Shown here: in pieces, positions 17,346-46,020 of the stretch
How positions within the stretch are numbered: position 1 is the stretch's first letter
How the letters are laid out: each line of letters opens with the position of its first letter
DNA from: Candidatus Saccharimonadales bacterium
GTDB lineage: Bacteria; Patescibacteriota; Saccharimonadia; Saccharimonadales; 2-12-FULL-41-12
Direction of reading: 5' to 3'
NCBI GenBank assembly: GCA_041600715.1
Contig: JBFIJM010000001.1
Coordinates: forward strand, 448,387 to 512,386
Length of the DNA: 64,000 bases
Made by a program: the position numbers and the translations under genes
Notes under the pieces: generated by a model
The model's input: only the letters and a program-made list of their open reading frames with translations
Database searches by the model: none
Told to the model about the DNA's origin: nothing

Positions 17346-18584
17346 CTAGAGCTCTTTGAGTGACTGTAAAATTGACACAAATGAACGGTAAGAATCTGTA
17401 GATTTAAAGCGTTCTTTTGTAATGACTACACCACTGGCCTGAGCGATTTTAATACTGTCTTGATTAGTAGTACCTATGCTTTTAAGGTGTGCTTCACTGA
17501 ATATATATTCTGCTTGAGCCCTGTAAAATCCAGTCTTTGTTGCAAGCTGGAATTGATCGCCCGGGGTGAATATGTCTCCCTCTTTAATGCAATTGTCGGG
17601 TGATACATTAACGCTAGTGATACTACCCGCTTGTTCCTGCACAGAAATAAACAATAGTCTTAAAGATTGAGAATCTAGAGTAATGTCTTCGCTTGAGCAT
17701 GTCTGCACTCCAGTAAGTAGGGTGGGGTATTTTTCTGTTGTGGTTATATTCTGGACGAATATCTTTGTTCGCATAAATACCTCTGACTCAACTTCTGGCA
17801 CATCTTTAAAACTGGTAGTAATTTTTTGTGTCGGAGCATCGATTGTCACTACATTTACTCCAGATCTTAGCTCATCCTTAGCAGAAAAAACTTTCCAATC
17901 AGCAGGATGCTGAAAAGCTATCCCAAGTTCCTCGTTTTTATAATCGACCAAACCACTGGCGGAGTCTGTTTTCTGGACAATTTTATCAGGCTGATCCTTG
18001 CTAGCAGAGTTGACCAGTGCAGGTTGATCACTATTAGGACTGATCATATCCTTGCCTGGACCTGCTAATAAATACCATGCTAACAACGTGGCTACTAAAA
18101 GAATTAGTAATACTACTAACCTCAGATGTCTCTTGCTTTTAGGTACGCGTGTTTTTACAAAGTATTTTTTAGAATTAACTAAGCCATTAATCTTTTCTGC
18201 GTATTTTCGTGCTTCTTGATCAGCAATTTTTTGATCATTTTTAGTACCCACATCGCCTACCAAATCGTTTACAACTGCGCTATTAGCTCCAACATTTTCT
18301 TCAGAGGCAGGCTCAATAATAGTATCTTCTTCTGGGACTGTATCAGTTGGCGAATCAGGTGTTTCTATCTCTTCATTTGAAGGGTTAATAACAAATTCAG
18401 GCTTAGATTTCTTACTCGGAGGCGCTTCTCCTTGGTTTGTGTCAACATCCTCTACTACAACCATTGGGTCATCTATAGTTTTTTTGTGACCTACAATGAT
18501 AGGCCTAGATGTTGCATCAGCTGGGGTTTGACCAGGTTTAGTAACATCAAATACCTTAGGTTTTTGTGATCGCTTATCAGCCAT
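17346..18584 (-). CDS. Hypothetical single-pass membrane protein with acidic/Pro-rich N-terminal region
   Basis: Start trimmed to ATG 18584 (MADKRSQKPK), 4 nt after the tpiA stop. TM helix LRLVVLLILLVATLLAWYLLA followed by a ~230-aa extracytoplasmic domain. Confidence 0.6.
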   Translation of the reverse strand: MADKRSQKPKVFDVTKPGQTPADATSRPIIVGHKKTIDDPMVVVEDVDTNQGEAPPSKKSKPEFVINPSNEEIETPDSPTDTVPEEDTIIEPASEENVGANSAVVNDLVGDVGTKNDQKIADQEARKYAEKINGLVNSKKYFVKTRVPKSKRHLRLVVLLILLVATLLAWYLLAGPGKDMISPNSDQPALVNSASKDQPDKIVQKTDSASGLVDYKNEELGIAFQHPADWKVFSAKDELRSGVNVVTIDAPTQKITTSFKDVPEVESEVFMRTKIFVQNITTTEKYPTLLTGVQTCSSEDITLDSQSLRLLFISVQEQAGSITSVNVSPDNCIKEGDIFTPGDQFQLATKTGFYRAQAEYIFSEAHLKSIGTTNQDSIKIAQASGVVITKERFKSTDSYRSFVSILQSLKEL

Positions 18585-19371
18585 TTGTCTTTTTCTCTCT
18601 GTTATAACGATACACCGCGTCAACTATGCCAGCAAACTTATGATAATTTAGGCTTGCGCTTCCTACCAACACACCATCACACCCATCTAAGGTTATGTAG
18701 CCTCGCACAATCTGATCGTCAACACTGCCCCCATAGAGGATTCTGACACTTTTAGATGCATTATCGCCGTAGAGATCACGCACTTGTTCTCTGATATAAG
18801 CTAGACTTTTTAGTACATCGTTTGGTTTTGCCAGCTCACCTCCAAAATTACTTATTGCCCATACTGGCTCGTAGGCAATAGCCATCGTAGCCACATCATC
18901 AGCGGTAAGATTGCTAAGCGCACTCACTACCTGATCGTGTAAAACTTGTCTTGTTTGACCGTCTCGCCGTTCTGCTGACGTTTCTCCTACACAAAGTATC
19001 GGGGTTAAACCATTCCTAACACATGAAGCTACTTTATCTCTCACAGTTTCGAGTGATTCATTAAAAAAGATTCGTCGTTCAGAGTGACCGATAATCACAT
19101 AATGAACGAGGTCTCTGAGCATAGCGAAAGATACTTCACCGGTGAATCCTCCTTCGTCCTTGTGGTAAGCATTTTGGGAAGCTAACCTAAAACGACGTCT
19201 GTCTATCTCGTGACTCAAAGGCTGAAGCGATAGCGTACTTGGTGCTAAAACTACTTCTATATCTTTGTGTCCGGCGATATGTTTGTGCATTCGCGCACTC
19301 AATAAGCTTGCTTGGCCAGTAGTAAGATGCATTTTCCAGTTAGCTACTACCAATGTTCTAGATGTGTGCAT
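18577..19371 (-). CDS. tpiA: Triosephosphate isomerase
   Basis: VVANWKMH, IIGHSERR, AYEPVWAI, YGGSV motifs. Confidence 0.92.
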   Translation of the reverse strand: MHTSRTLVVANWKMHLTTGQASLLSARMHKHIAGHKDIEVVLAPSTLSLQPLSHEIDRRRFRLASQNAYHKDEGGFTGEVSFAMLRDLVHYVIIGHSERRIFFNESLETVRDKVASCVRNGLTPILCVGETSAERRDGQTRQVLHDQVVSALSNLTADDVATMAIAYEPVWAISNFGGELAKPNDVLKSLAYIREQVRDLYGDNASKSVRILYGGSVDDQIVRGYITLDGCDGVLVGSASLNYHKFAGIVDAVYRYNREKKTNG

Positions 19372-23043: not shown

Positions 23044-23079
23044 ATCTAAAAACCCCAGCTTCGTCTGGGGTTTTTAGAT
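23044..23079 (+). terminator. Hairpin terminator directly after tRNA-Glu
   Basis: ATCTAAAAACCCCA / TGGGGTTTTTAGAT 14-bp arms with 8-nt loop; A/T tracts on both sides. Confidence 0.8.
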
Positions 23080-23080
23080 T

Positions 23081-23206
23081 GGCAGGCTCACTCGAGCCAG
23101 CCCGAAACCCGCAGTGGTTCGTTCATGACGATCACGCACAGGAGTTTACTCCGAGCATGTGAGGGGAAATGGTTGTCGCTAAGCGACAACGGATTCCGTG
23201 AGGTCA
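23081..23206 (+). other. tRNA-Glu-linked structured insert ending in a degenerate copy of the tRNA 3' end
   Basis: Ends with GATTCCGTGAGGTCA (23192-23206), against tRNA GATTCCCCGTGAGGTCA (23024-23040). Contains hairpins at 23032-23062 and GTTGTCGC-taa-GCGACAAC (23172-23190). Confidence 0.45.
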
Positions 23207-23357: not shown

Positions 23358-24122
23358 TTATATCCTACTCAGACGCCGAGTAAATAAGTGGTGACCAGCT
23401 GTCGCAAGAGTGACAGTACTAGCAAAAAGTACAAAGACTCCTCCCGCACCAGCTTCCGGCAGTACACTCGGCTGGGATGACTGCGATGACGGACTTGTTC
23501 TATCTGTAGGTTTTATTGGTGTCGAAGGAGTGGGCGGAGGAGTTACTGGTGGGGTTACAGGAGGTTGTTCTGGTGGCGTCACTGGTGGCTGAGGACAATC
23601 TACCTTTGCTTTAAATTGGACAAATCGTTTTTCGTTAACCGATACGCCAACGTCGCCTATTGGTACCCCTGATCCACTAGTTACGTCTGAGATACCACGA
23701 ATAAACTCACTGTTTGGCCCAAGCAACTGACTACTTCCTGGAATATAAGCAATCTTTTGGGGTGTAGAGAGATTAACAGTGGCAGTGTCAGACGTATTTG
23801 ACGGACTAGCGTTGCTTGCTCTAATCACAATAGATGAAATATTTTGCGCAGATGAAGCTGTCCCAAACACTGCCTGAACTGTCACACCGGTTAAAGCCTC
23901 GTCTGGCCCAGGATTATGTATTCGTACTTTATATTGCAGAATATCGCATTTATCAGCCAAGGCTGGGTCACTAAAATCGGTACCTTTTGTAACATTACGA
24001 ACCCTATAGATATCTCCACCCTCTGCATATGGCGCCGCAAAAGTCTGTGCCGGCATAGCGGTAATTAACACTGCCAGCCCGAGGACCGCCATAAAACTTT
24101 TGATTGATGCTTGGACCCTCAT
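23358..24122 (-). CDS. LPXTG-type cell-wall-anchored surface protein (254 aa)
   Basis: Signal peptide; beta-rich domain; PPVTPP-rich stalk; C-terminal sorting signal LPEAG plus hydrophobic stretch plus RRLSRI. Confidence 0.8.
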   Translation of the reverse strand: MRVQASIKSFMAVLGLAVLITAMPAQTFAAPYAEGGDIYRVRNVTKGTDFSDPALADKCDILQYKVRIHNPGPDEALTGVTVQAVFGTASSAQNISSIVIRASNASPSNTSDTATVNLSTPQKIAYIPGSSQLLGPNSEFIRGISDVTSGSGVPIGDVGVSVNEKRFVQFKAKVDCPQPPVTPPEQPPVTPPVTPPPTPSTPIKPTDRTSPSSQSSQPSVLPEAGAGGVFVLFASTVTLATAGHHLFTRRLSRI

Positions 24123-24145
24123 TTTATTCTCCTTTACTTCATCTG

Positions 24146-25498
24146 TTAAAACTGATCAGCTAAAACTGGAAATGTGTCCTGTACAATCACGTCTGTTGAG
24201 TTATCTGATGTTCGTTTACTATTGACTATAGTTACTCCATCGAGCAATTCTGCCGAGGCAACTACACTTCCTGGACTTGACGGTGCCTTCACTTGTACGC
24301 ACCTAGTAGTTGCAGACTCGGCATAAACATCGCTTGTAACCTGCCCTATAGCATTGCCATTATTATCACGGAGTCTAAAATTGCGCGCTGTAACTTGATC
24401 GCCGTCAGGATCATAGAGGTTTTTAACGCAAATCTTCCCTATGCCATTGACATACATATGCTGTGGAACCACCATTTCTCCTTGCGGGGGAGAATTCCTT
24501 TCTGGGGTAGGCTGAGGCGAAGGACTAGGACCTGGACTCGGCTGAGGCGTTGGTGATGGTGACGGCGAAGGAGCAGGAGCAGGGCTTATTGTGCTAGATT
24601 CTGAACAGTATGCACTAGCTAACGCTATAGCCTTTGACCGTGCTTCACCACTAGCTTTTAGACTTCCGTTAGATTTCAAAGAACTAATGCGTGATCTAAG
24701 CTTTTTCAACCCGCTTTTTAGGTTCATAGTGGCTTTTGCGTAACCCTCACCTCTCCCATAACCAAAAGCAGAAGTTCCAGCGGTTCTACACTCTGCTCTT
24801 GCCGTGGCTTCAGACCTGGCTACCACGCTTAAATGAGCCTTCCGGTAGTCGTTAACCCAAAATACTTTGCCCCTAATAGCGTGTTTTGGCATCTTTAAAC
24901 GAGCTGCGTTACCGCACGCTTTTCTATACCATTGCCAACCTTTGGATGTTTTAATCTTACAAAAAACAGATCTCCTGGTATCCCTGCCATAAGGTCTGCC
25001 GGATTCTTGGCGACCCTGAGTCCATATATTTACTTTTTTGCCATCAATCACTCTGCAACGATTCTGTTTTTCAGCGCTCTTTAGCCTTTGAGTAGATACT
25101 GTACGGTAATTGCCTAGCACGGTGGCCTTGCTGATAGTTTCTTCAGAAGCTTTACTACCAGCAATCCTGAACTCGAACTTGTTGTTTAGGCTAGTGATCT
25201 CTGTCGATGGTTGCTGAGCTTCCGCCTTCTCGGTATTAATAGACCCTTTTACAGCCGAACTTAGGGCTAAAGTCGCCACACCGATAGTCATAAGCCGTGT
25301 AGCACGATTATGTTTAATGTCATCAAATAATGACGAGGTACCCTGTTCTCCGATATCGCTTGGCGGTATTTGATGACCAGCAAAATCTCTGGAGGAAATA
25401 TCCTGGTTATAGGGAGGTTGTATAGTCTCCTCAAGCCCGATGTCAGGCATAGCCATTGTTTCTAGCGTTCTTGTCATGGTCGACCCCTTCTCGGACAC
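24146..25498 (-). CDS. Single-pass membrane protein with Cys/Arg/Lys-rich ectodomain, PS-rich linker and C-terminal beta domain (450 aa)
   Basis: TM helix LMTIGVATLALSSAV; linker PAPAPSPSPSPTPQPSPGPSPSPQP. Start uncertain (several early Met). 23-nt gap to the downstream LPXTG gene. Confidence 0.65.
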   Translation of the reverse strand: MSEKGSTMTRTLETMAMPDIGLEETIQPPYNQDISSRDFAGHQIPPSDIGEQGTSSLFDDIKHNRATRLMTIGVATLALSSAVKGSINTEKAEAQQPSTEITSLNNKFEFRIAGSKASEETISKATVLGNYRTVSTQRLKSAEKQNRCRVIDGKKVNIWTQGRQESGRPYGRDTRRSVFCKIKTSKGWQWYRKACGNAARLKMPKHAIRGKVFWVNDYRKAHLSVVARSEATARAECRTAGTSAFGYGRGEGYAKATMNLKSGLKKLRSRISSLKSNGSLKASGEARSKAIALASAYCSESSTISPAPAPSPSPSPTPQPSPGPSPSPQPTPERNSPPQGEMVVPQHMYVNGIGKICVKNLYDPDGDQVTARNFRLRDNNGNAIGQVTSDVYAESATTRCVQVKAPSSPGSVVASAELLDGVTIVNSKRTSDNSTDVIVQDTFPVLADQF

Positions 25499-27333: not shown

Positions 27334-28890
27334 TTAAGGCTTCGCTGGTAGCGTTGTTGCTGGTTTATTGATAGTTTCAGGATCTGCGTTAATTGCAGGC
27401 TCAGGTAATACAGGAACAGGATTTGAATCTGCAGGACCTTGAGTTTCTGGTGTGTGAGGATCAGCAGTGACTAGTGCTGGCTTAGGAGTCTGTCCTTGTT
27501 TAGGAACTTCTATTGGAGAACTACCGGCTTGTGGACGAACCGCATCACCAGTACCGCCTGCGCTAGGAGCTTTGTTGGGGCCTGGTATTTTGCCGTCGCT
27601 TGTTTTAGGGGGCTTAACAGGTGGTTTTTCTGGAGCTGGACGCTCTGTTTCGTTCTCGCCTGGTTTTGGCTGTGTCGGCTGAACAGGTTTTTCTGGAGCT
27701 GGATTCTCTATTTTATTCTTGCCTGGTGTAGGAGTTTCTGTGGTAGTAGTTGTAGGAGGAGTTACTCTTTCTCCACCGCCTGGCTGAGATACTTTTGGAG
27801 TTGGAGCTTTACGGATAAGGTTAAGGCAGATTTTGCCATCACTATCTTTTGTTACTTTCCACATAAGGGTACCCATTCCTTTTACTTCACGAACAAGCAC
27901 TGTTTCACCGTCGAAGTACTCTAGCTGTTCGTTTATTTCTCCACCATCTTCCATGTATCCGTTATAAACATATCCGGTATAAGACTTCTCGTAGTTCTTA
28001 GCGTTATCGGCTGTCATGAACTTAGCATTAAAAGCTTCTTGCTCTTTAGCTGACATGCCAGTTTCTGCATTGATCGATCGATTATTCTTAGTATTAAAGT
28101 TAATCGATGCTTTTCCGTATTGGTTACCTTCAGTAGTGTCACTGAACATAGCAAGACCAACTGCTGTAAGCTTCTTGTTAATACCAGTACCTTCTGCAGA
28201 CATAGCGTTCATCTTGTTATGAATATTATTTAATTCAAGATTAATATTGCCATTTGCATAGTGCTTAAGAACTTCTGCGCGTCTGTCGCTAGAGTCAATA
28301 TTTAAGCTCTTTACTGCGCTAGCAACGTTGCTTGAATTACCAATAGTTATTTTTTGCTTCTGTGTTGTTGAAGCAGAAGGGTCATTTTCTTTACTCTTAG
28401 TAGTTGGGCTAGGAACTGCACCAAGACTTGTCTGAGCACCAAACTGTGATTGTTGCACTGTACTCTGATTACTCTTACTATTATCATTATTTGTTTGAGC
28501 AGAATTAGCTGGTGTGCCAACACGCTCAACAGTTCTGTCACCAAACGGGCTCCAAACTGCAACTGCAGAAAGAGCCACAGCGACACCGCCAAGTACTTTG
28601 TTAAGACGGCGTGATCTACGTAGCTTATCTTTTAGATGAGTAGACTCGCTCTCTAGTTGAGCAACTTCACCTGTCAAAGAACCAACACGCTTTCTTAATT
28701 CGTTATTATTTTCATTTGATGTTGCGATCTGTTCTTTCATATCTACAAGTTGCTCAGCAACCGGCTCAGCAGTACCACCGTCAACAAGCTTCTGCACATC
28801 AATATTACGCTTCATCGCCAACGCTTCATCACGCATCTCTGGTGTTTCTGCTGGACGACCTTGGTTTGGGTCTTGGTTTGGATTAGTCAT
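27334..28890 (-). CDS. Single-pass membrane protein with N-terminal coiled coil and Pro-rich C-terminal tail (518 aa)
   Basis: Cytoplasmic coiled coil; TM VLGGVAVALSAVAVW; ectodomain; tail with repeated PAPEKP units. 8-nt gap to the downstream LPXTG gene. Confidence 0.7.
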   Translation of the reverse strand: MTNPNQDPNQGRPAETPEMRDEALAMKRNIDVQKLVDGGTAEPVAEQLVDMKEQIATSNENNNELRKRVGSLTGEVAQLESESTHLKDKLRRSRRLNKVLGGVAVALSAVAVWSPFGDRTVERVGTPANSAQTNNDNSKSNQSTVQQSQFGAQTSLGAVPSPTTKSKENDPSASTTQKQKITIGNSSNVASAVKSLNIDSSDRRAEVLKHYANGNINLELNNIHNKMNAMSAEGTGINKKLTAVGLAMFSDTTEGNQYGKASINFNTKNNRSINAETGMSAKEQEAFNAKFMTADNAKNYEKSYTGYVYNGYMEDGGEINEQLEYFDGETVLVREVKGMGTLMWKVTKDSDGKICLNLIRKAPTPKVSQPGGGERVTPPTTTTTETPTPGKNKIENPAPEKPVQPTQPKPGENETERPAPEKPPVKPPKTSDGKIPGPNKAPSAGGTGDAVRPQAGSSPIEVPKQGQTPKPALVTADPHTPETQGPADSNPVPVLPEPAINADPETINKPATTLPAKP

Positions 28891-37610: not shown

Positions 37611-37639
37611 TTGCTACAACAGGGGTAATCTGCTATTAT
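37611..37639 (+). promoter_or_regulatory. Sigma70-type promoter upstream of tRNA-Lys
   Basis: TTGCTA (37611-37616), 17-nt spacer, TATTAT (37634-37639). tRNA starts at 37659. Confidence 0.5.
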
Positions 37640-37658: not shown

Positions 37659-37735
37659 GGGCCAGTAGCTCAGCTGGTTAGAGCACCTGCCTCTTAAGCA
37701 GGGTGTCGAGGGTTCGAGTCCCTCCTGGCCCTCCA
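37659..37735 (+). tRNA. tRNA-Lys (anticodon CTT), CCA encoded
   Basis: Manual cloverleaf: GGGCCAG/CTGGCCC acceptor, anticodon loop CTCTTAA, T arm GAGGG-TTCGAGT-CCCTC. Confidence 0.9.
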
Positions 37736-37739
37736 CGCA

Positions 37740-37767
37740 AGAACCGTCCTTCTGGGCGGTTTTTTCG
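37740..37767 (+). terminator. Hairpin + T-run terminator directly after tRNA-Lys (proximal)
   Basis: AACCGTCC-ttct-GGGCGGTT followed by TTTTT. Confidence 0.7.
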
Positions 37768-37904
37768 TGATTGATCTTTGGGGTCACGAATTCATGACAC
37801 GCCAAAGGGTGGAGAGGGTGAGGATTGCCTGTGGCAATCTGCAAGGGAGACAACTCTTGCAAACTGGTTTGCAGAGATGTTGCGACGGGGTCGCAGAATG
37901 TGAC

Positions 37905-37925
37905 CGAGTCCCTCCTGGCCCTCCA
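37905..37925 (+). repeat. Second copy of the tRNA-Lys 3' end (21/21 identical to 37715-37735)
   Basis: Direct reading of both copies. Confidence 0.95.
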
Positions 37926-37963
37926 AACTAAAATACCCTACCTTGCCGTAGGGTATTTTAGTT
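37926..37963. terminator. Second (distal) hairpin terminator following the duplicated tRNA-Lys end
   Basis: AAACTAAAATACCCTAC-cttgcc-GTAGGGTATTTTAGTTT, 17-bp arms. Confidence 0.75.
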
Positions 37964-38063
37964 TGGTGTTTTGGGCGGACTCAAACCTGAGACTTGGATT
38001 TTCTTCAGAAAATACAGTTATCGAGCGGTTCGGTCGACAAAGTCGTGCGCTTGCCCCTCCTTG
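37964..38063 (+). other. Second, older-looking tRNA-linked insert (related to the one after tRNA-Arg-TCT)
   Basis: Shares GGTTCGGTCGACAAAGTC (38027-38044, 16/18 with 43867-43884) and GTGCGCTTGCCCCTCC (38045-38060) with the 43.9-kb insert. Ends in a degenerate T-arm/acceptor-like CCCCTCCTTGG. Confidence 0.35.
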
Positions 38064-38100
38064 GGTGTTTTTAATCTAGATCCACAGCAATTAAATTAGA

Positions 38101-42013: not shown

Positions 42014-43540
42014 GTGATCATGACCAACACAAACGAAAAAATAGGACAGTTAATTTATCAGATCAGGCAAGAGCGTGGTTTTACACAAGCTGAGTTTGCA
42101 AGAAGACTTGGCACCAGTCAATCAGCCGTAAACCGTATCGAAAAAGGTCGACAGAACCTCAGTCTAGAGACATTAGGTAGAATTAGCGACGTACTCAATA
42201 AGCAGATCATTAGCCTCGGTGGAGGTGCGGTAAACCTAAGGATAGAAGGCGGACATGAACTCAAAGGGAGCATAGAAACTAAGGTTTCTAAAAATGCTGC
42301 GGTTTGTTTGTTATTCGCTGCGCTTCTAAACAAAGGCACCACAAGACTTAAGCGTATGCCGAGAATAGAAGAAGTAAACCGACTTATAGAAGTACTGACA
42401 AGCATAGGAGTAAAAGTCCGATGGATGGCTAATAACGACTTAGAGATTCGACCACCAGAAGTCCTGCTACTCGACAAGATGGATAAAACCGCTGCCCGAA
42501 AAACACGTAGTGTGATCATGATGCTAGGTCCTCTAATGCATCTGTTTGATGAGTTCAAAATCCCCTATGCAGGGGGGTGTAAACTTGGGAGCAGGACTGT
42601 TCAGCCACATCTCTTCGCTCTTGAAGAATTTGGAGTTAACATTACTGCTAAGACCGGTCATTATCATGTTGTCGCCAAACACAAAATTCCTGAAACAATA
42701 ATATTATACGAATCTGGCGATACAACCACAGAGAACGTCATCATGGCAGCATCCCGCGTAGACGGAGAGGTAACAATTAAGATGGCTAGTGCTAATTATA
42801 TGGTTCAGGATCTCTGTTATTTCTTAAAAAAACTTGGCGTTAAGATTTCAGGAATAGGCACCAGTACTCTTGTTATTCGTGGCGTAAAAAATATTCGAAA
42901 GAACGTTACTTATCATCCATCTGAAGACCCAATAGAGTCAATGACATTTATAGCAGCAGCGGTTACTACAAACTCCAGTATTACAGTTAAGCGTGCACCG
43001 ATAGAGTTTGTGGAGTTAGAACTTTTAAAACTTAAAAAAATGGGTCTTTCTTTTGATGTCAGCCCTCATTACAAGGCTAACAATGGGTACACAGACCTTG
43101 CCGATATTACTATCCATAAACATGACGGTAAACTTACAGCTTTAGAGGAAAAAATTTATGCTCGTCCATTCCCTGGCCTAAACATCGACAATCTACCGTA
43201 TTTCGTGCCGATTTCTGCAGTAGCGAAAGGTCGCACTCTTATACACGACTGGGTGTATGAAGAAAGAGCACTTTATTATACCGAGATGCGCAAACTTGGA
43301 GTGAATGTCACGCTAGCTGATCCTCATAGAGCTTACATAGATGGGCCAACAAAATGGAGCGTTGCAGACGTAGTATGCCCTCCCGCCCTTCGTCCAGCGG
43401 TCCTACTGCTCATTGGTATGCTAGCAGCACCTGGTACTTCTATCCTACGTAATGTCTATTCTATCAATCGTGGATACGAGGATCTTGCCGAAAGACTAAA
43501 TCAAATCGGTGCTCAGATAGAAATTATCAACGATCTATAA
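42014..43540 (+). CDS. murA: XRE-type HTH domain fused to UDP-N-acetylglucosamine 1-carboxyvinyltransferase
   Basis: Residues ~8-65 are HTH_3-like (IRQERGFTQAEFARRLGTSQSAVNRIEKGRQNLSLETL). The remainder is MurA-like (SKNAAV Lys motif, catalytic Cys in PYAGGCKLGSRTVQPHL, two-lobed EPSP-synthase-fold length). Confidence 0.8.
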   Translation: MIMTNTNEKIGQLIYQIRQERGFTQAEFARRLGTSQSAVNRIEKGRQNLSLETLGRISDVLNKQIISLGGGAVNLRIEGGHELKGSIETKVSKNAAVCLLFAALLNKGTTRLKRMPRIEEVNRLIEVLTSIGVKVRWMANNDLEIRPPEVLLLDKMDKTAARKTRSVIMMLGPLMHLFDEFKIPYAGGCKLGSRTVQPHLFALEEFGVNITAKTGHYHVVAKHKIPETIILYESGDTTTENVIMAASRVDGEVTIKMASANYMVQDLCYFLKKLGVKISGIGTSTLVIRGVKNIRKNVTYHPSEDPIESMTFIAAAVTTNSSITVKRAPIEFVELELLKLKKMGLSFDVSPHYKANNGYTDLADITIHKHDGKLTALEEKIYARPFPGLNIDNLPYFVPISAVAKGRTLIHDWVYEERALYYTEMRKLGVNVTLADPHRAYIDGPTKWSVADVVCPPALRPAVLLLIGMLAAPGTSILRNVYSINRGYEDLAERLNQIGAQIEIINDL

Positions 43541-43798: not shown

Positions 43799-43835
43799 AA
43801 ATAAAACACCTATTATTTGATAGGTGTTTTATTTT
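43799..43835. terminator. Hairpin terminator directly after tRNA-Arg-TCT
   Basis: AAAATAAAACACCTAT-tatttg-ATAGGTGTTTTATTTT. Confidence 0.8.
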
Positions 43836-43937
43836 GACAGCTAGCTGAAGCGGGCATCGAACCACAGGTTCGGTCGCCCAAGTCACGCACAAGAATGAAT
43901 TCCGAGCATGACTGCAGGCGTGCGCTACCCCTCCCGA
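43836..43937 (+). other. tRNA-Arg-TCT-linked structured insert, related to those after tRNA-Glu and tRNA-Lys
   Basis: Contains TCACGCACAAGAATGAATTCCGAGCATGAC (43883-43912, ~80% identical to 23032-23061) and blocks shared with 38027-38060. Ends in CCCTCCCG (43930-43937), matching the tRNA T-arm/acceptor junction 43783-43790. Confidence 0.4.
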
Positions 43938-43986
43938 TTGATCATCACCCACTCTACGCCTCCTTAGATCTTATTTATTACAGTAG

Positions 43987-45797: not shown

Positions 45798-45816
45798 TTA
45801 TTTGGAGACTTATTTA

Positions 45817-45845
45817 AAATACCCGGGGTAAACCTGGGTATTTTT
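45817..45845 (-). terminator. Distal hairpin terminator following the duplicated tRNA-Pro end
   Basis: AAAATACCCGG-ggtaaa-CCTGGGTATTTT (plus-strand reading), symmetric A/T tracts. Confidence 0.7.
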
Positions 45846-45849
45846 AATA

Positions 45850-45865
45850 GTCGGGGTGAAAGGAC
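45850..45865 (-). repeat. Second copy of the tRNA-Pro 3' end (16/16 identical to 46021-46036)
   Basis: GTCGGGGTGAAAGGAC read directly at both positions. Similarity continues imperfectly into the flanks. Confidence 0.95.
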
Positions 45866-46020
45866 ATTGCACTTTGTGCTCCTCCGCTCAATCGTGCTCA
45901 ATGCAAGCTTTTGCGCGCGATTTCGCTACGCCAAACCTTCCGTTCGCTTTGCTCACTCATCAGGTTATTGTCACTTCGGAAAAATTAATATAGCCTAGCA
46001 AAGCTAAGCTATATTAATTG
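45850..46020 (-). mobile_element. 171-bp insert between tRNA-Pro and its distal terminator, bounded by duplicated tRNA 3' end
   Basis: Same architecture as at tRNA-Lys: tRNA, proximal terminator (45978-46018), ~110-nt GC-richer hairpin-rich segment, repeat, distal terminator. No ORF. Confidence 0.35.

Follow-up and report, generated by a model that had tools for sequence, protein, structure and literature searches.

The locus described here raises the question of what separates a transfer RNA (tRNA) gene from a second, perfect copy of its own 3' end, and how that DNA came to be there. The stretch analysed, called the window, comprises 64,000 nucleotides (nt) from a Candidatus Saccharimonadales bacterium (assembly GCA_041600715.1, contig JBFIJM010000001.1, positions 448,387 to 512,386), and positions are counted from its first letter. 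In it the last 21 nt of the gene encoding tRNA-Lys are found again 190 bp further downstream. These 190 bp are a real, recent insertion behind tRNA-Lys. On balance we favour the explanation that a miniature non-autonomous module has recently inserted into the T-loop/3'-end segment of tRNA-Lys, and that it is one of a tRNA-targeting family of the Saccharimonadales.

The tRNA-Lys locus and its insert

The locus contains the following features:

37659-37735, + strand: intact tRNA-Lys(CTT) (ARAGORN; 72.2 bits with the Rfam tRNA model)
37715-37735, + strand: repeat copy 1, the last 21 nt of tRNA-Lys, C56 to A76 (repeat search)
37736-37767, + strand: T1, an intrinsic terminator with a 13-bp hairpin and T6, -17.2 kcal/mol
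37768-37819, + strand: segment X, a CTTTGG...CCAAAG hairpin and then tRNA nt 44-54 as a degenerate copy (direct repeat D3, inverted repeats I5 and I9, fold)
37820-37904, + strand: class II scaffold, about 85 nt, in place of T-loop nt 54-55 (RNAalifold, single-sequence folds, pair tables, nhmmer)
37905-37925, + strand: repeat copy 2, the displaced original 3' end of tRNA-Lys, C56 to CCA, 21/21 (followed by the ancestral terminator, as at empty sites)
37923-37966, + strand: T2, the ancestral bidirectional tRNA-Lys terminator, with perfect 19-bp arms, a T-rich tail and the CCA within its stem, -28.6 kcal/mol
37967-38075, + strand: unit B, an older, decayed class I unit downstream of T2 (90% identical to locus L003 over 132 nt; full-length homologue in L213)

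The 21-mer CGAGTCCCTCCTGGCCCTCCA has exactly two occurrences in the window and no further match there with up to 3 mismatches; none of 100 shuffles gave any, and the chance expectation for an exact 21-mer repeat is 0. The duplication had been noticed in a first-pass annotation made from the letters alone and is confirmed here, together with the terminator placed between the copies (T1) and all the hairpins listed for the DNA between them. The second terminator is indeed present after copy 2, although with arms of 19 bp and not of 17 bp. That the insert has no open reading frame (ORF) also holds, since only mechanical ones of 41-84 codons cross it. A promoter-like TTGCTA-17-TATTAT lies 5' of tRNA-Lys at 37611-37639, and no promoter was found between T1, a strong terminator, and the scaffold. 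The tRNA terminators of this and the related genomes are long A/T-armed bidirectional hairpins whose stem starts inside the encoded CCA (CCAAAC...GTTTGG), and CCA is encoded by all seven tRNAs of the window.

Directly 5' of the structured part, positions 37806-37819 (AGGGTGGAGAGGGT) match 37700-37713 of the tRNA gene (AGGGTGTCGAGGGT) at 12 of 14 nt; the copied nt 44-54 are the variable loop and the T-stem 5' strand. Because this copy and nt 56-76 flank the scaffold, the arrangement is that of a partial tRNA copy whose T loop has been replaced by about 85 nt of scaffold. In the predicted folds the T stem (about 37815-18 with 37909-12) closes a four-way junction with hairpins P1 (37822-37840), a long P2 (37846-37886) and P4' (37888-37905), the last having the core GTCGC/GTGAC with an invariant G.T wobble. 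An AAGGTCG..GGG counterpart of segment X is present in other class II units. When the whole insert is folded as a single sequence its z-score is -2.1, modest in comparison with shuffles.

Empty sites in related genomes

Two Logan assemblies built independently from different runs, L001 (SRR29257392) and L002 (SRR29257383), contain the identical arrangement, and an assembly artefact, which had been considered for this duplication, is therefore ruled out. Three related loci have tRNA-Lys without the insert. In L213 (neighbour protein 73% identical) an identical 77-nt tRNA-Lys is directly followed by a homologue of T2, which makes a complete empty site; in L003 (74%) tRNA-Lys runs straight into the T2 homologue at the end of the contig, and in L004 (69%) a diverged tRNA-Lys precedes the same conserved terminator. 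T1 is missing from all three, and a three-way alignment leaves exactly 190 extra nt in the window. As the tRNA-Lys of the relatives joins the T2 homologue directly and the window has these additional nt, T2 must be ancestral and T1 must have arrived with the insert. It also follows from T2, and not T1, being ancestral that the insertion took place within the T loop rather than 60 bp downstream. The attL/attR-like geometry suggested by the first-pass annotation is thus held up by empty sites of the form that it had foreseen, with tRNA-Lys directly before the terminator.

Unit B contains an inverted T-arm motif, GGACTCAAACC (37977-87), followed by a hairpin (37995-38016) and GGTTCGGTCG; after these, 35 nt have been deleted internally, and what follows is a 3' copy in degenerate form, GCCCCTCC, with a small terminator (38052-38067). 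The deletion, mapped against L213, is a loss of scaffold, and the unit contains inverted repeat I4. A tRNA-Sec-like reading of 37995-38016 was rejected, this being a simple 6-bp hairpin with a 4-nt loop.

A family of units at many tRNA genes

Similar units are present at four of the seven tRNAs of the window (Lys, Glu, Arg(TCT) and Pro); tRNA-Gly, tRNA-His, tRNA-Arg(TCG) and the transfer-messenger RNA (tmRNA) have none. Apart from tRNA-Lys, the units are:

23044-23206, + strand: tRNA-Glu unit, with terminator, class I scaffold and tRNA-Glu 3'-end copy GATTCCGTGAGGTCA (nhmmer E=6.8e-19, itself in the class I seed)
43799-43941, + strand: tRNA-Arg(TCT) unit, with terminator, class I scaffold and degenerate 3' copy CCCCTCCCG (profile search, alignment)
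45812-46018, - strand: tRNA-Pro(TGG) unit, with terminator, class I scaffold, 3' copy GTCCTTTCACCCCGAC and second terminator (14/14 for the 14 nt before CCA)

The survey was extended to 80 related Saccharimonadales loci retrieved with the MurA protein, so that it covers loci near MurA in one order; 147 tRNAs were called, of which 135 are non-redundant. For 14 distinct tRNAs the last 14 nt before CCA recur within 700 nt downstream with at most 2 mismatches, and upstream or on the other strand the same recurrence is never that close, the minimum being 3 mismatches. Over 9 kb, and again with at most 2 mismatches, a tRNA's own 3' 17-mer was found downstream on the same strand in 16 cases, mostly 111-175 nt away. 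There was one match upstream and there were two on the reverse strand, and these three are all other real tRNAs. The offsets of the downstream copies are mostly 111-180 nt.

Profile searches with nhmmer separate three classes of scaffold:

Class I: signature GGTTCG..CACGCGCAGGAnTTTAnTCCGAGCATG..; at tRNAs Glu, Gly, Pro, Lys and Arg
Class II, including the 190-bp insert (unit A): T-stem-closed junction with P1, P2 and P4'; at tRNAs Lys, Arg-TCT, Arg-TCG and Arg-CCG
Class III: inverted T-arm motif..GAGTTTTCC..AACT; at tRNAs Pro, Lys, Arg and His

The class is uncorrelated with the identity of the tRNA, and one tRNA can bear different classes, or none, depending on the genome. Unit A is placed in class II by its T-stem-closed junction, P1, long P2, the invariant G.T of P4' and a tRNA-copy junction at C56; outside the seed, nhmmer recovered class II members in L043, L062, L047 and, twice, L083. 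When the Lys, Arg and Pro units were compared with Rfam 15 in gathering and permissive scans, only tRNA and tmRNA reached threshold and the units stayed at chance level, and a known RNA family was rejected on these scans. The same holds for a hammerhead-like CUGAUGAG in the Pro unit, which has no Rfam support. A T-loop intron under selection was rejected too, no unit having both exons intact. Full-text searches of the literature gave no description of this arrangement, and these small folded modules, which insert at the T-loop end of many Saccharibacteria tRNA genes, apparently form an undescribed family.

Conservation of the folds

Comparison of the members shows that the scaffold folds are conserved by compensatory base changes. 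Covariation had been proposed beforehand as a check on the structure of the insert, and it was found in its class: RNAalifold on four diverse IIa members predicts 38 pairs, 19 of them with compensatory changes. In P1 and P4' of seven members there are 88 Watson-Crick pairs, 13 G.U, no A.C and one mismatch, and the G.T wobble at one position of P4' is invariant in all seven; both alignments (four and seven members) are small. The 13 G.U against no A.C indicate that the class II fold forms, as RNA or as single-stranded DNA, from the tRNA-sense strand alone.

For class I (14 sequences) 79.8% of the cells are paired, against 34-40% when the partners are slid, and 16 of 23 pairs have changes on both sides. 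The covariation score is 0.468 against about 0.11, and none of 500 shuffles reaches the observed score. This class has no strand bias (six G.U, five A.C), and the positions of its candidate pseudoknot, CGCGCA with UGCGC, are mostly invariant.

Turnover, arrays and mirror-image units

Relatives differ in which unit, if any, a given tRNA bears. In L083 near-identical modules made of T1 and a class III scaffold are found at Arg-TCG and Arg-CCG, with hairpins differing by compensatory changes, and after each comes the 3' end of the local tRNA. The near-identical genomes of L045 (2780-3060) and L043 (4656-4935) agree through the tRNA, T1 and the class II scaffold as far as ...TCGAATCCCTC in the 3' copy and are unrelated thereafter; in L043 a different tRNA-like acceptor end (TTGAGCACCA) comes next, together with unrelated DNA. 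This abrupt divergence after TCGAATCCCTC marks a recombination breakpoint in the T-stem 3' strand. Old units decay, as can be seen in unit B and in the Arg and Glu copies of the window.

Some units are combined with genes. The array at the tRNA-Arg of L014 (3424-2270, - strand) consists of T1, a promoter, a 94-aa membrane ORF, a terminator, a unit, a cupin ORF, another unit and a terminator, and the array at the tRNA-Lys of L003 (6062-4616, - strand) has a kinase-like P-loop ORF between degenerate Lys copies. In both, single accessory ORFs are each followed by a scaffold and a tRNA 3' copy, in the manner of gene cassettes. Pfam, PHROGs and NCBIfam assigned the cargo ORFs to an NYN domain, to a cupin, to a kinase-like or a membrane protein, or to nothing, and on these results they were rejected as recombinases; the flanking ORFs searched in this way are not recombinases either.

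Mirror-image units lie on the 5' side of the tRNA in L047 (2656-2232, - strand), L062 (190-463) and twice in L083 (2870-2477 and 600-197, both - strand). They comprise a copy of tRNA nt 1-53 (53/53 in L047), a class II scaffold, a T-arm stub and a TATAAT-type promoter, and then the intact tRNA. At these sites the intact tRNA is flanked on both sides, a class I or III unit with its 3' copy lying downstream, and it looks as if a segment carrying a tRNA sits inside the T loop of an older tRNA.

Other partial copies of tRNAs were also encountered. At L004 3557-3573 and about L083 13118-13100 (- strand), 5' partial copies of tRNA-Lys and tRNA-Arg(TCT) are broken in the D loop (GGGTCATTAGCTCAGCT|... 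and GCCCTGGTAGCTCAGCTGG|...) and followed by a hairpin; these may be a further kind of tRNA-flanking partial copy. The tRNA-Arg/tRNA-Lys pair of L004 is inverted relative to the gene order of the window. In L074 (150-195) the tRNA-Lys 3' copy of a class I unit is itself interrupted: 23 nt are inserted where the T-stem 3' strand would meet the acceptor strand (GTCCCAC-TTTATCCTGAGCCTGTCGAAGGA-CTGGGCCCCCCA). Scaffold-free partial tRNA 3' copies are found 63-74 nt downstream of tRNA-Arg genes in L034 (11829-11740, - strand) and L074 (2908-2810, - strand), and the fragment in L034 has the T stem of the tRNA-Arg of another lineage, as would be expected of an ordinary replacement or integration scar.

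Neighbouring genes and searches for a donor

The 40 ORFs of the window have Pfam matches to housekeeping proteins or no assignment. Among the matches are FolD, MurA/B, a Mur ligase, SHMT, ATP synthase, MetRS and glycolysis enzymes, as well as UvrD, RecA, RecX, RuvB and the type IV pilus proteins PilB/C/M. A neighbour of the locus encodes a protein with a helix-turn-helix (HTH) and DUF3467, a homologue of which is assigned by NCBI to a Candidatus Saccharimonadales metagenome-assembled genome. MurA (42014-43540, EPSP_synthase fold) bears an N-terminal Cro/C1-type HTH, and this fusion is kept in related loci. Sizeable ORFs (254-518 aa) without a Pfam match occur on the - strand at 17346-18623, 23358-25498 and 27334-28890, and Pfam-less ORFs of 254 and 450 aa lie directly downstream of the tRNA-Glu unit.

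When the insert was compared with phage and plasmid collections by blastn, just short chance or terminator-like matches were obtained. The exact 21-mer, which a phage or plasmid element might have carried as its own attachment site according to the first-pass annotation, is absent from the viral contigs. In the same contigs the class I and II patterns gave nothing or a chance match in GC-rich coding DNA (L091), and the class III pattern is too loose to inform. On these searches a phage or plasmid origin was rejected. In a collection of genome contigs, apparently without the species of the window, the class I pattern had three chance matches in coding regions of Proteobacteria. The search for other copies gave family members at other tRNAs and, in the window, the related loci and the phage, plasmid and viral collections, no second copy of unit A itself.

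Explanations of the insert

According to the explanation that we favour, the module would enter the tRNA at the T loop. It would bring T1 as its terminator and, from C56 to CCA, a 3' end that replaces the old one, and because it supplies both, the tRNA gene would stay intact. The original 3' end and T2 would be displaced and left downstream. The rest of the module is the partial tRNA copy (nt 44-54 plus 56-76) with its T loop replaced by the class II four-way-junction scaffold, and this scaffold, folded on the tRNA-sense strand, would be the cis-acting site through which a recombination activity encoded elsewhere would pair the module with the T arm of the tRNA and exchange strands there. Each new module would go in at the intact tRNA and displace earlier ones outward, where they decay, and some modules carry cargo genes. 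Among the three options that the first-pass annotation had offered, a miniature non-autonomous element fits best.

Several observations weigh against this explanation. No recombinase/integrase, transposase, reverse transcriptase, Cas or TnpB domain is found among the 40 ORFs of the window with Pfam, so that the earlier statement that the window has no integrase holds at this level. The HxLRH motif of tyrosine recombinases, sought with a crude regular expression, is absent from all ORFs of at least 120 aa in the window and the 80 loci (about 0.8 Mb), and the enzyme is therefore wholly hypothetical. A donor or second copy of unit A is absent from the window, the related loci and the phage, plasmid and viral collections, and among the assembled sequences no excised or circular form of the module was observed. 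Each scaffold has on either side sequence particular to its local tRNA (P0 covariation), and the explanation gives no account of how one class would reach different tRNAs. Finally, the mirror-image units imply exchange on either side of the scaffold and fit a homology-driven crossover better than a single fixed cleavage site.

Plain homologous recombination is the main rival, although we consider it rather unlikely. It would need no dedicated enzyme: 'tRNA::scaffold' DNA, acquired by natural transformation or as a small circle looped out between direct repeats, would recombine by a RecA-dependent single crossover in whichever flank still matches the resident tRNA, giving duplications on the 3' side (window) or the 5' side (L047), with gene conversion keeping nearby copies identical. 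Both types of arrangement do occur around the same class II scaffold, with perfect homology on the side of the exchange (21/21 in the window, 53/53 in L047), the breakpoint between L043 and L045 lies in the conserved T arm, and the window encodes RecA, RecX, RuvB, UvrD and a type IV pilus/competence-like apparatus. However, 21 bp is at the lower limit of homology for RecA-mediated exchange. Homologous recombination also gives no account of how scaffolds with cognate flanks came into the T loops of such unrelated tRNAs as Glu, Gly, Pro, Lys, Arg and His in the first place, and it does not explain a strand-specific fold with compensatory changes. A functional small RNA is a less likely, indeed improbable, explanation. 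In its favour is the multi-helix junction with compensatory changes, in which a G.U is invariant and the fold is biased toward the tRNA-sense strand. Such an RNA would be a mimic of the tRNA-Lys 3' half whose T loop is expanded and whose acceptor-strand-CCA tail is free. Read-through of T1 would produce it and T2 would end it, and it could serve as a decoy or partner for a recogniser of tRNA 3' ends, for example a toxin, a CCA-adding or repair enzyme, or the tRNA 5' strand. The 3' copy ends in CCA and then a terminator, as do genuine tRNA genes here, and it is preserved at 21/21 while the 5' partial copy has diverged. The structured RNA gene of the first-pass annotation is supported to this extent, by its structure and its ending; other evidence speaks against it. 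There is no promoter, and the unit stands directly behind a 13-bp/T6 terminator; the whole-insert z-score reaches just the value given above, and Rfam has no match. Moreover, units are unconserved at orthologous sites and missing in close relatives, older units have lost scaffold and 3' copy, and in cargo arrays the scaffolds are placed after the terminators of ORFs.

The two remaining explanations are the least supported. The locus could be the simple scar of an integrase-bearing island or prophage in tRNA-Lys, nearly all of it deleted later so that attL and attR are left about 170 bp apart. A direct repeat from the T loop to CCA is the classical geometry of tRNA integrases, and scaffold-free tRNA fragments exist in relatives (L034, L074). 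We nevertheless regard a scar as very unlikely, and this option of the first-pass annotation fits poorly, since independent deletions at 14 or more tRNAs would not all leave the same compact layout (terminator, partial tRNA copy, scaffold and, at 111-180 nt, the 3' copy) and covariation of the scaffolds would be unexpected. No integrase remnant was found between the copies, and a normal attR would not have a structured insertion separating its copy of nt 44-54 from nt 56-76. Even less probable is an RNA- or target-templated process, in which the scaffold and the 21-nt tail would guide a TnpB/IscB- or Cas12k-like enzyme to tRNAs, or the 21 bp would be a long target-site duplication made by a Cas1/casposase-like integrase. 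In the tRNA, GGTT of the universal T loop comes before the 21-mer and resembles the protospacer adjacent motif of Cas12k, and copy 2 is preceded by the scaffold, an order of scaffold and 3' guide that resembles omega-RNAs and single-guide RNAs; none of the known scaffolds is matched in Rfam. The class II junctions always fall exactly at C56, and accretion with the newest unit next to the tRNA resembles CRISPR or casposon integration. Yet no Cas, TnpB, IscB, Tns or Cas1 gene is found in the window with Pfam, a nuclease so guided would cut the cell's own essential tRNA gene, the insert is without terminal inverted repeats, and a plain target-site duplication leaves the cognate nt 44-54 copy and the 5'-side units unexplained. 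In particular, homing of a CRISPR-associated transposon or an omega-RNA was rejected on the lack of a TnpB, IscB, Cas12k or TnsB/C/TniQ effector in the window (Pfam) and on T2, not T1, being ancestral.

Returning to the inserted module, a wider and more tentative proposal, which we regard as possible and no better than doubtful, is that the Saccharimonadales have a hitherto unknown cassette-insertion system with the universally conserved T arm of tRNAs as its attachment site. Modules, some of them gene-bearing, would end in a strand-specific, structure-conserved scaffold within a T-loop mimic, and a trans-acting or host recombinase would insert them, possibly as folded single-stranded DNA after uptake, into polar arrays at many tRNA genes. 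In function such a system would parallel integron attC x attI recombination or Xer-exploiting elements, and in mechanism it would be distinct from them. Should the family prove to be what it appears to be, about half of the tRNA genes in an episymbiont genome of about 0.8 Mb would be landing pads for tiny structured modules and single-gene cassettes, without any visible integrase. Genes would then move by a new route in the Candidate Phyla Radiation, whose mobile-element biology is poorly known. The family could also yield a recombination system that is compact and directed at a sequence which every cell contains. Whatever the mechanism, the units explain partial tRNA genes that confuse annotation, and they mark synteny breakpoints.

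Comparison with known systems

Islands with tyrosine integrases reportedly target tRNA genes, with the T loop as a sublocation used by P4-like elements. The present locus shares with them an identity block from the T loop to the 3' end, an intact tRNA restored by a 21/21 direct repeat with the displaced fragment at the far end, tandem accretion and attB-like empty sites (L213, L003, L004). In contrast to such islands, the module has only 190 bp, and no integrase was found in the element, the window or about 0.8 Mb of flanks, as judged from the ORFs of the insert, from Pfam on the 40 window ORFs and from the crude motif search. Its far end is a partial tRNA copy with a scaffold in the T loop, mirror versions occur on the 5' side, cassette-like arrays are formed, and one class serves many tRNAs.

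The cis-mobilizable elements (CIMEs) of Streptococcus integrative and conjugative elements and the elements resembling miniature inverted-repeat transposable elements (MITEs) are short and retain only cis sites, the enzyme acting in trans. The module is likewise short and would keep only its cis sites, and its enzyme would also act in trans. Unlike CIMEs and MITE-like elements, the modules have no known autonomous parent and no terminal inverted repeats, and their proposed cis site is a folded, strand-specific multi-hairpin structure. As regards MITEs mobilised by DDE enzymes, no inverted repeat joins the termini of the insert, and the duplication varies in length (about 17-23 nt) while always ending at the tRNA's 3' end.

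Integron cassettes are small, some with one ORF, and end in a structure-conserved attC that folds in a strand-specific manner, forming polar arrays at a fixed site. The modules resemble them in size, in a structure-conserved site with a strand-specific fold and in their polar arrays, and the attC crossover G/TT resembles GGTT|CGA of the T loop. They differ in that no intI was found by the platform and that a multi-hairpin junction takes the place of the single-hairpin attC with R''/L''/L'/R'; moreover, the platform is any of many tRNA genes, and each cassette duplicates part of the tRNA. Integrative mobile elements exploiting Xer (IMEX), such as CTX-phi, use the host XerCD and a folded single-stranded attP. 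Like them, the modules have no recombinase of their own, accumulate in tandem and carry a folded site that mimics the chromosomal target, here possibly also as a folded single strand; unlike them, they target the T arm of a tRNA and not dif, and no phage genome is attached. With casposons and CRISPR acquisition (Cas1) there is in common a long target duplication at the tRNA 3' end and the placing of new units next to a 'leader', the tRNA, whereas no Cas1 gene and no terminal inverted repeats were found and cognate tRNA sequence is also present 5' of the scaffold.

Structured insertions in tRNA genes have been described in the same phylum, as group I introns at position 35/36 in the anticodon loop of Patescibacteria tRNAs (PMC13011429). 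The scaffolds differ from these introns in being 55-125 nt long, in having no Rfam intron match and in residing in the T loop of tRNA copies that are partial and non-functional, next to a gene that is intact. Compared with the first-pass annotation, what is added here is a family with three classes, a scaffold inside the T loop of a partial tRNA copy, the 5'-side versions and the cargo arrays. The units are set apart from classical islands by the absence of an integrase, their miniature size, the T-loop-mimic scaffold, the three classes, the 5'-side forms and the cassette-like arrays.

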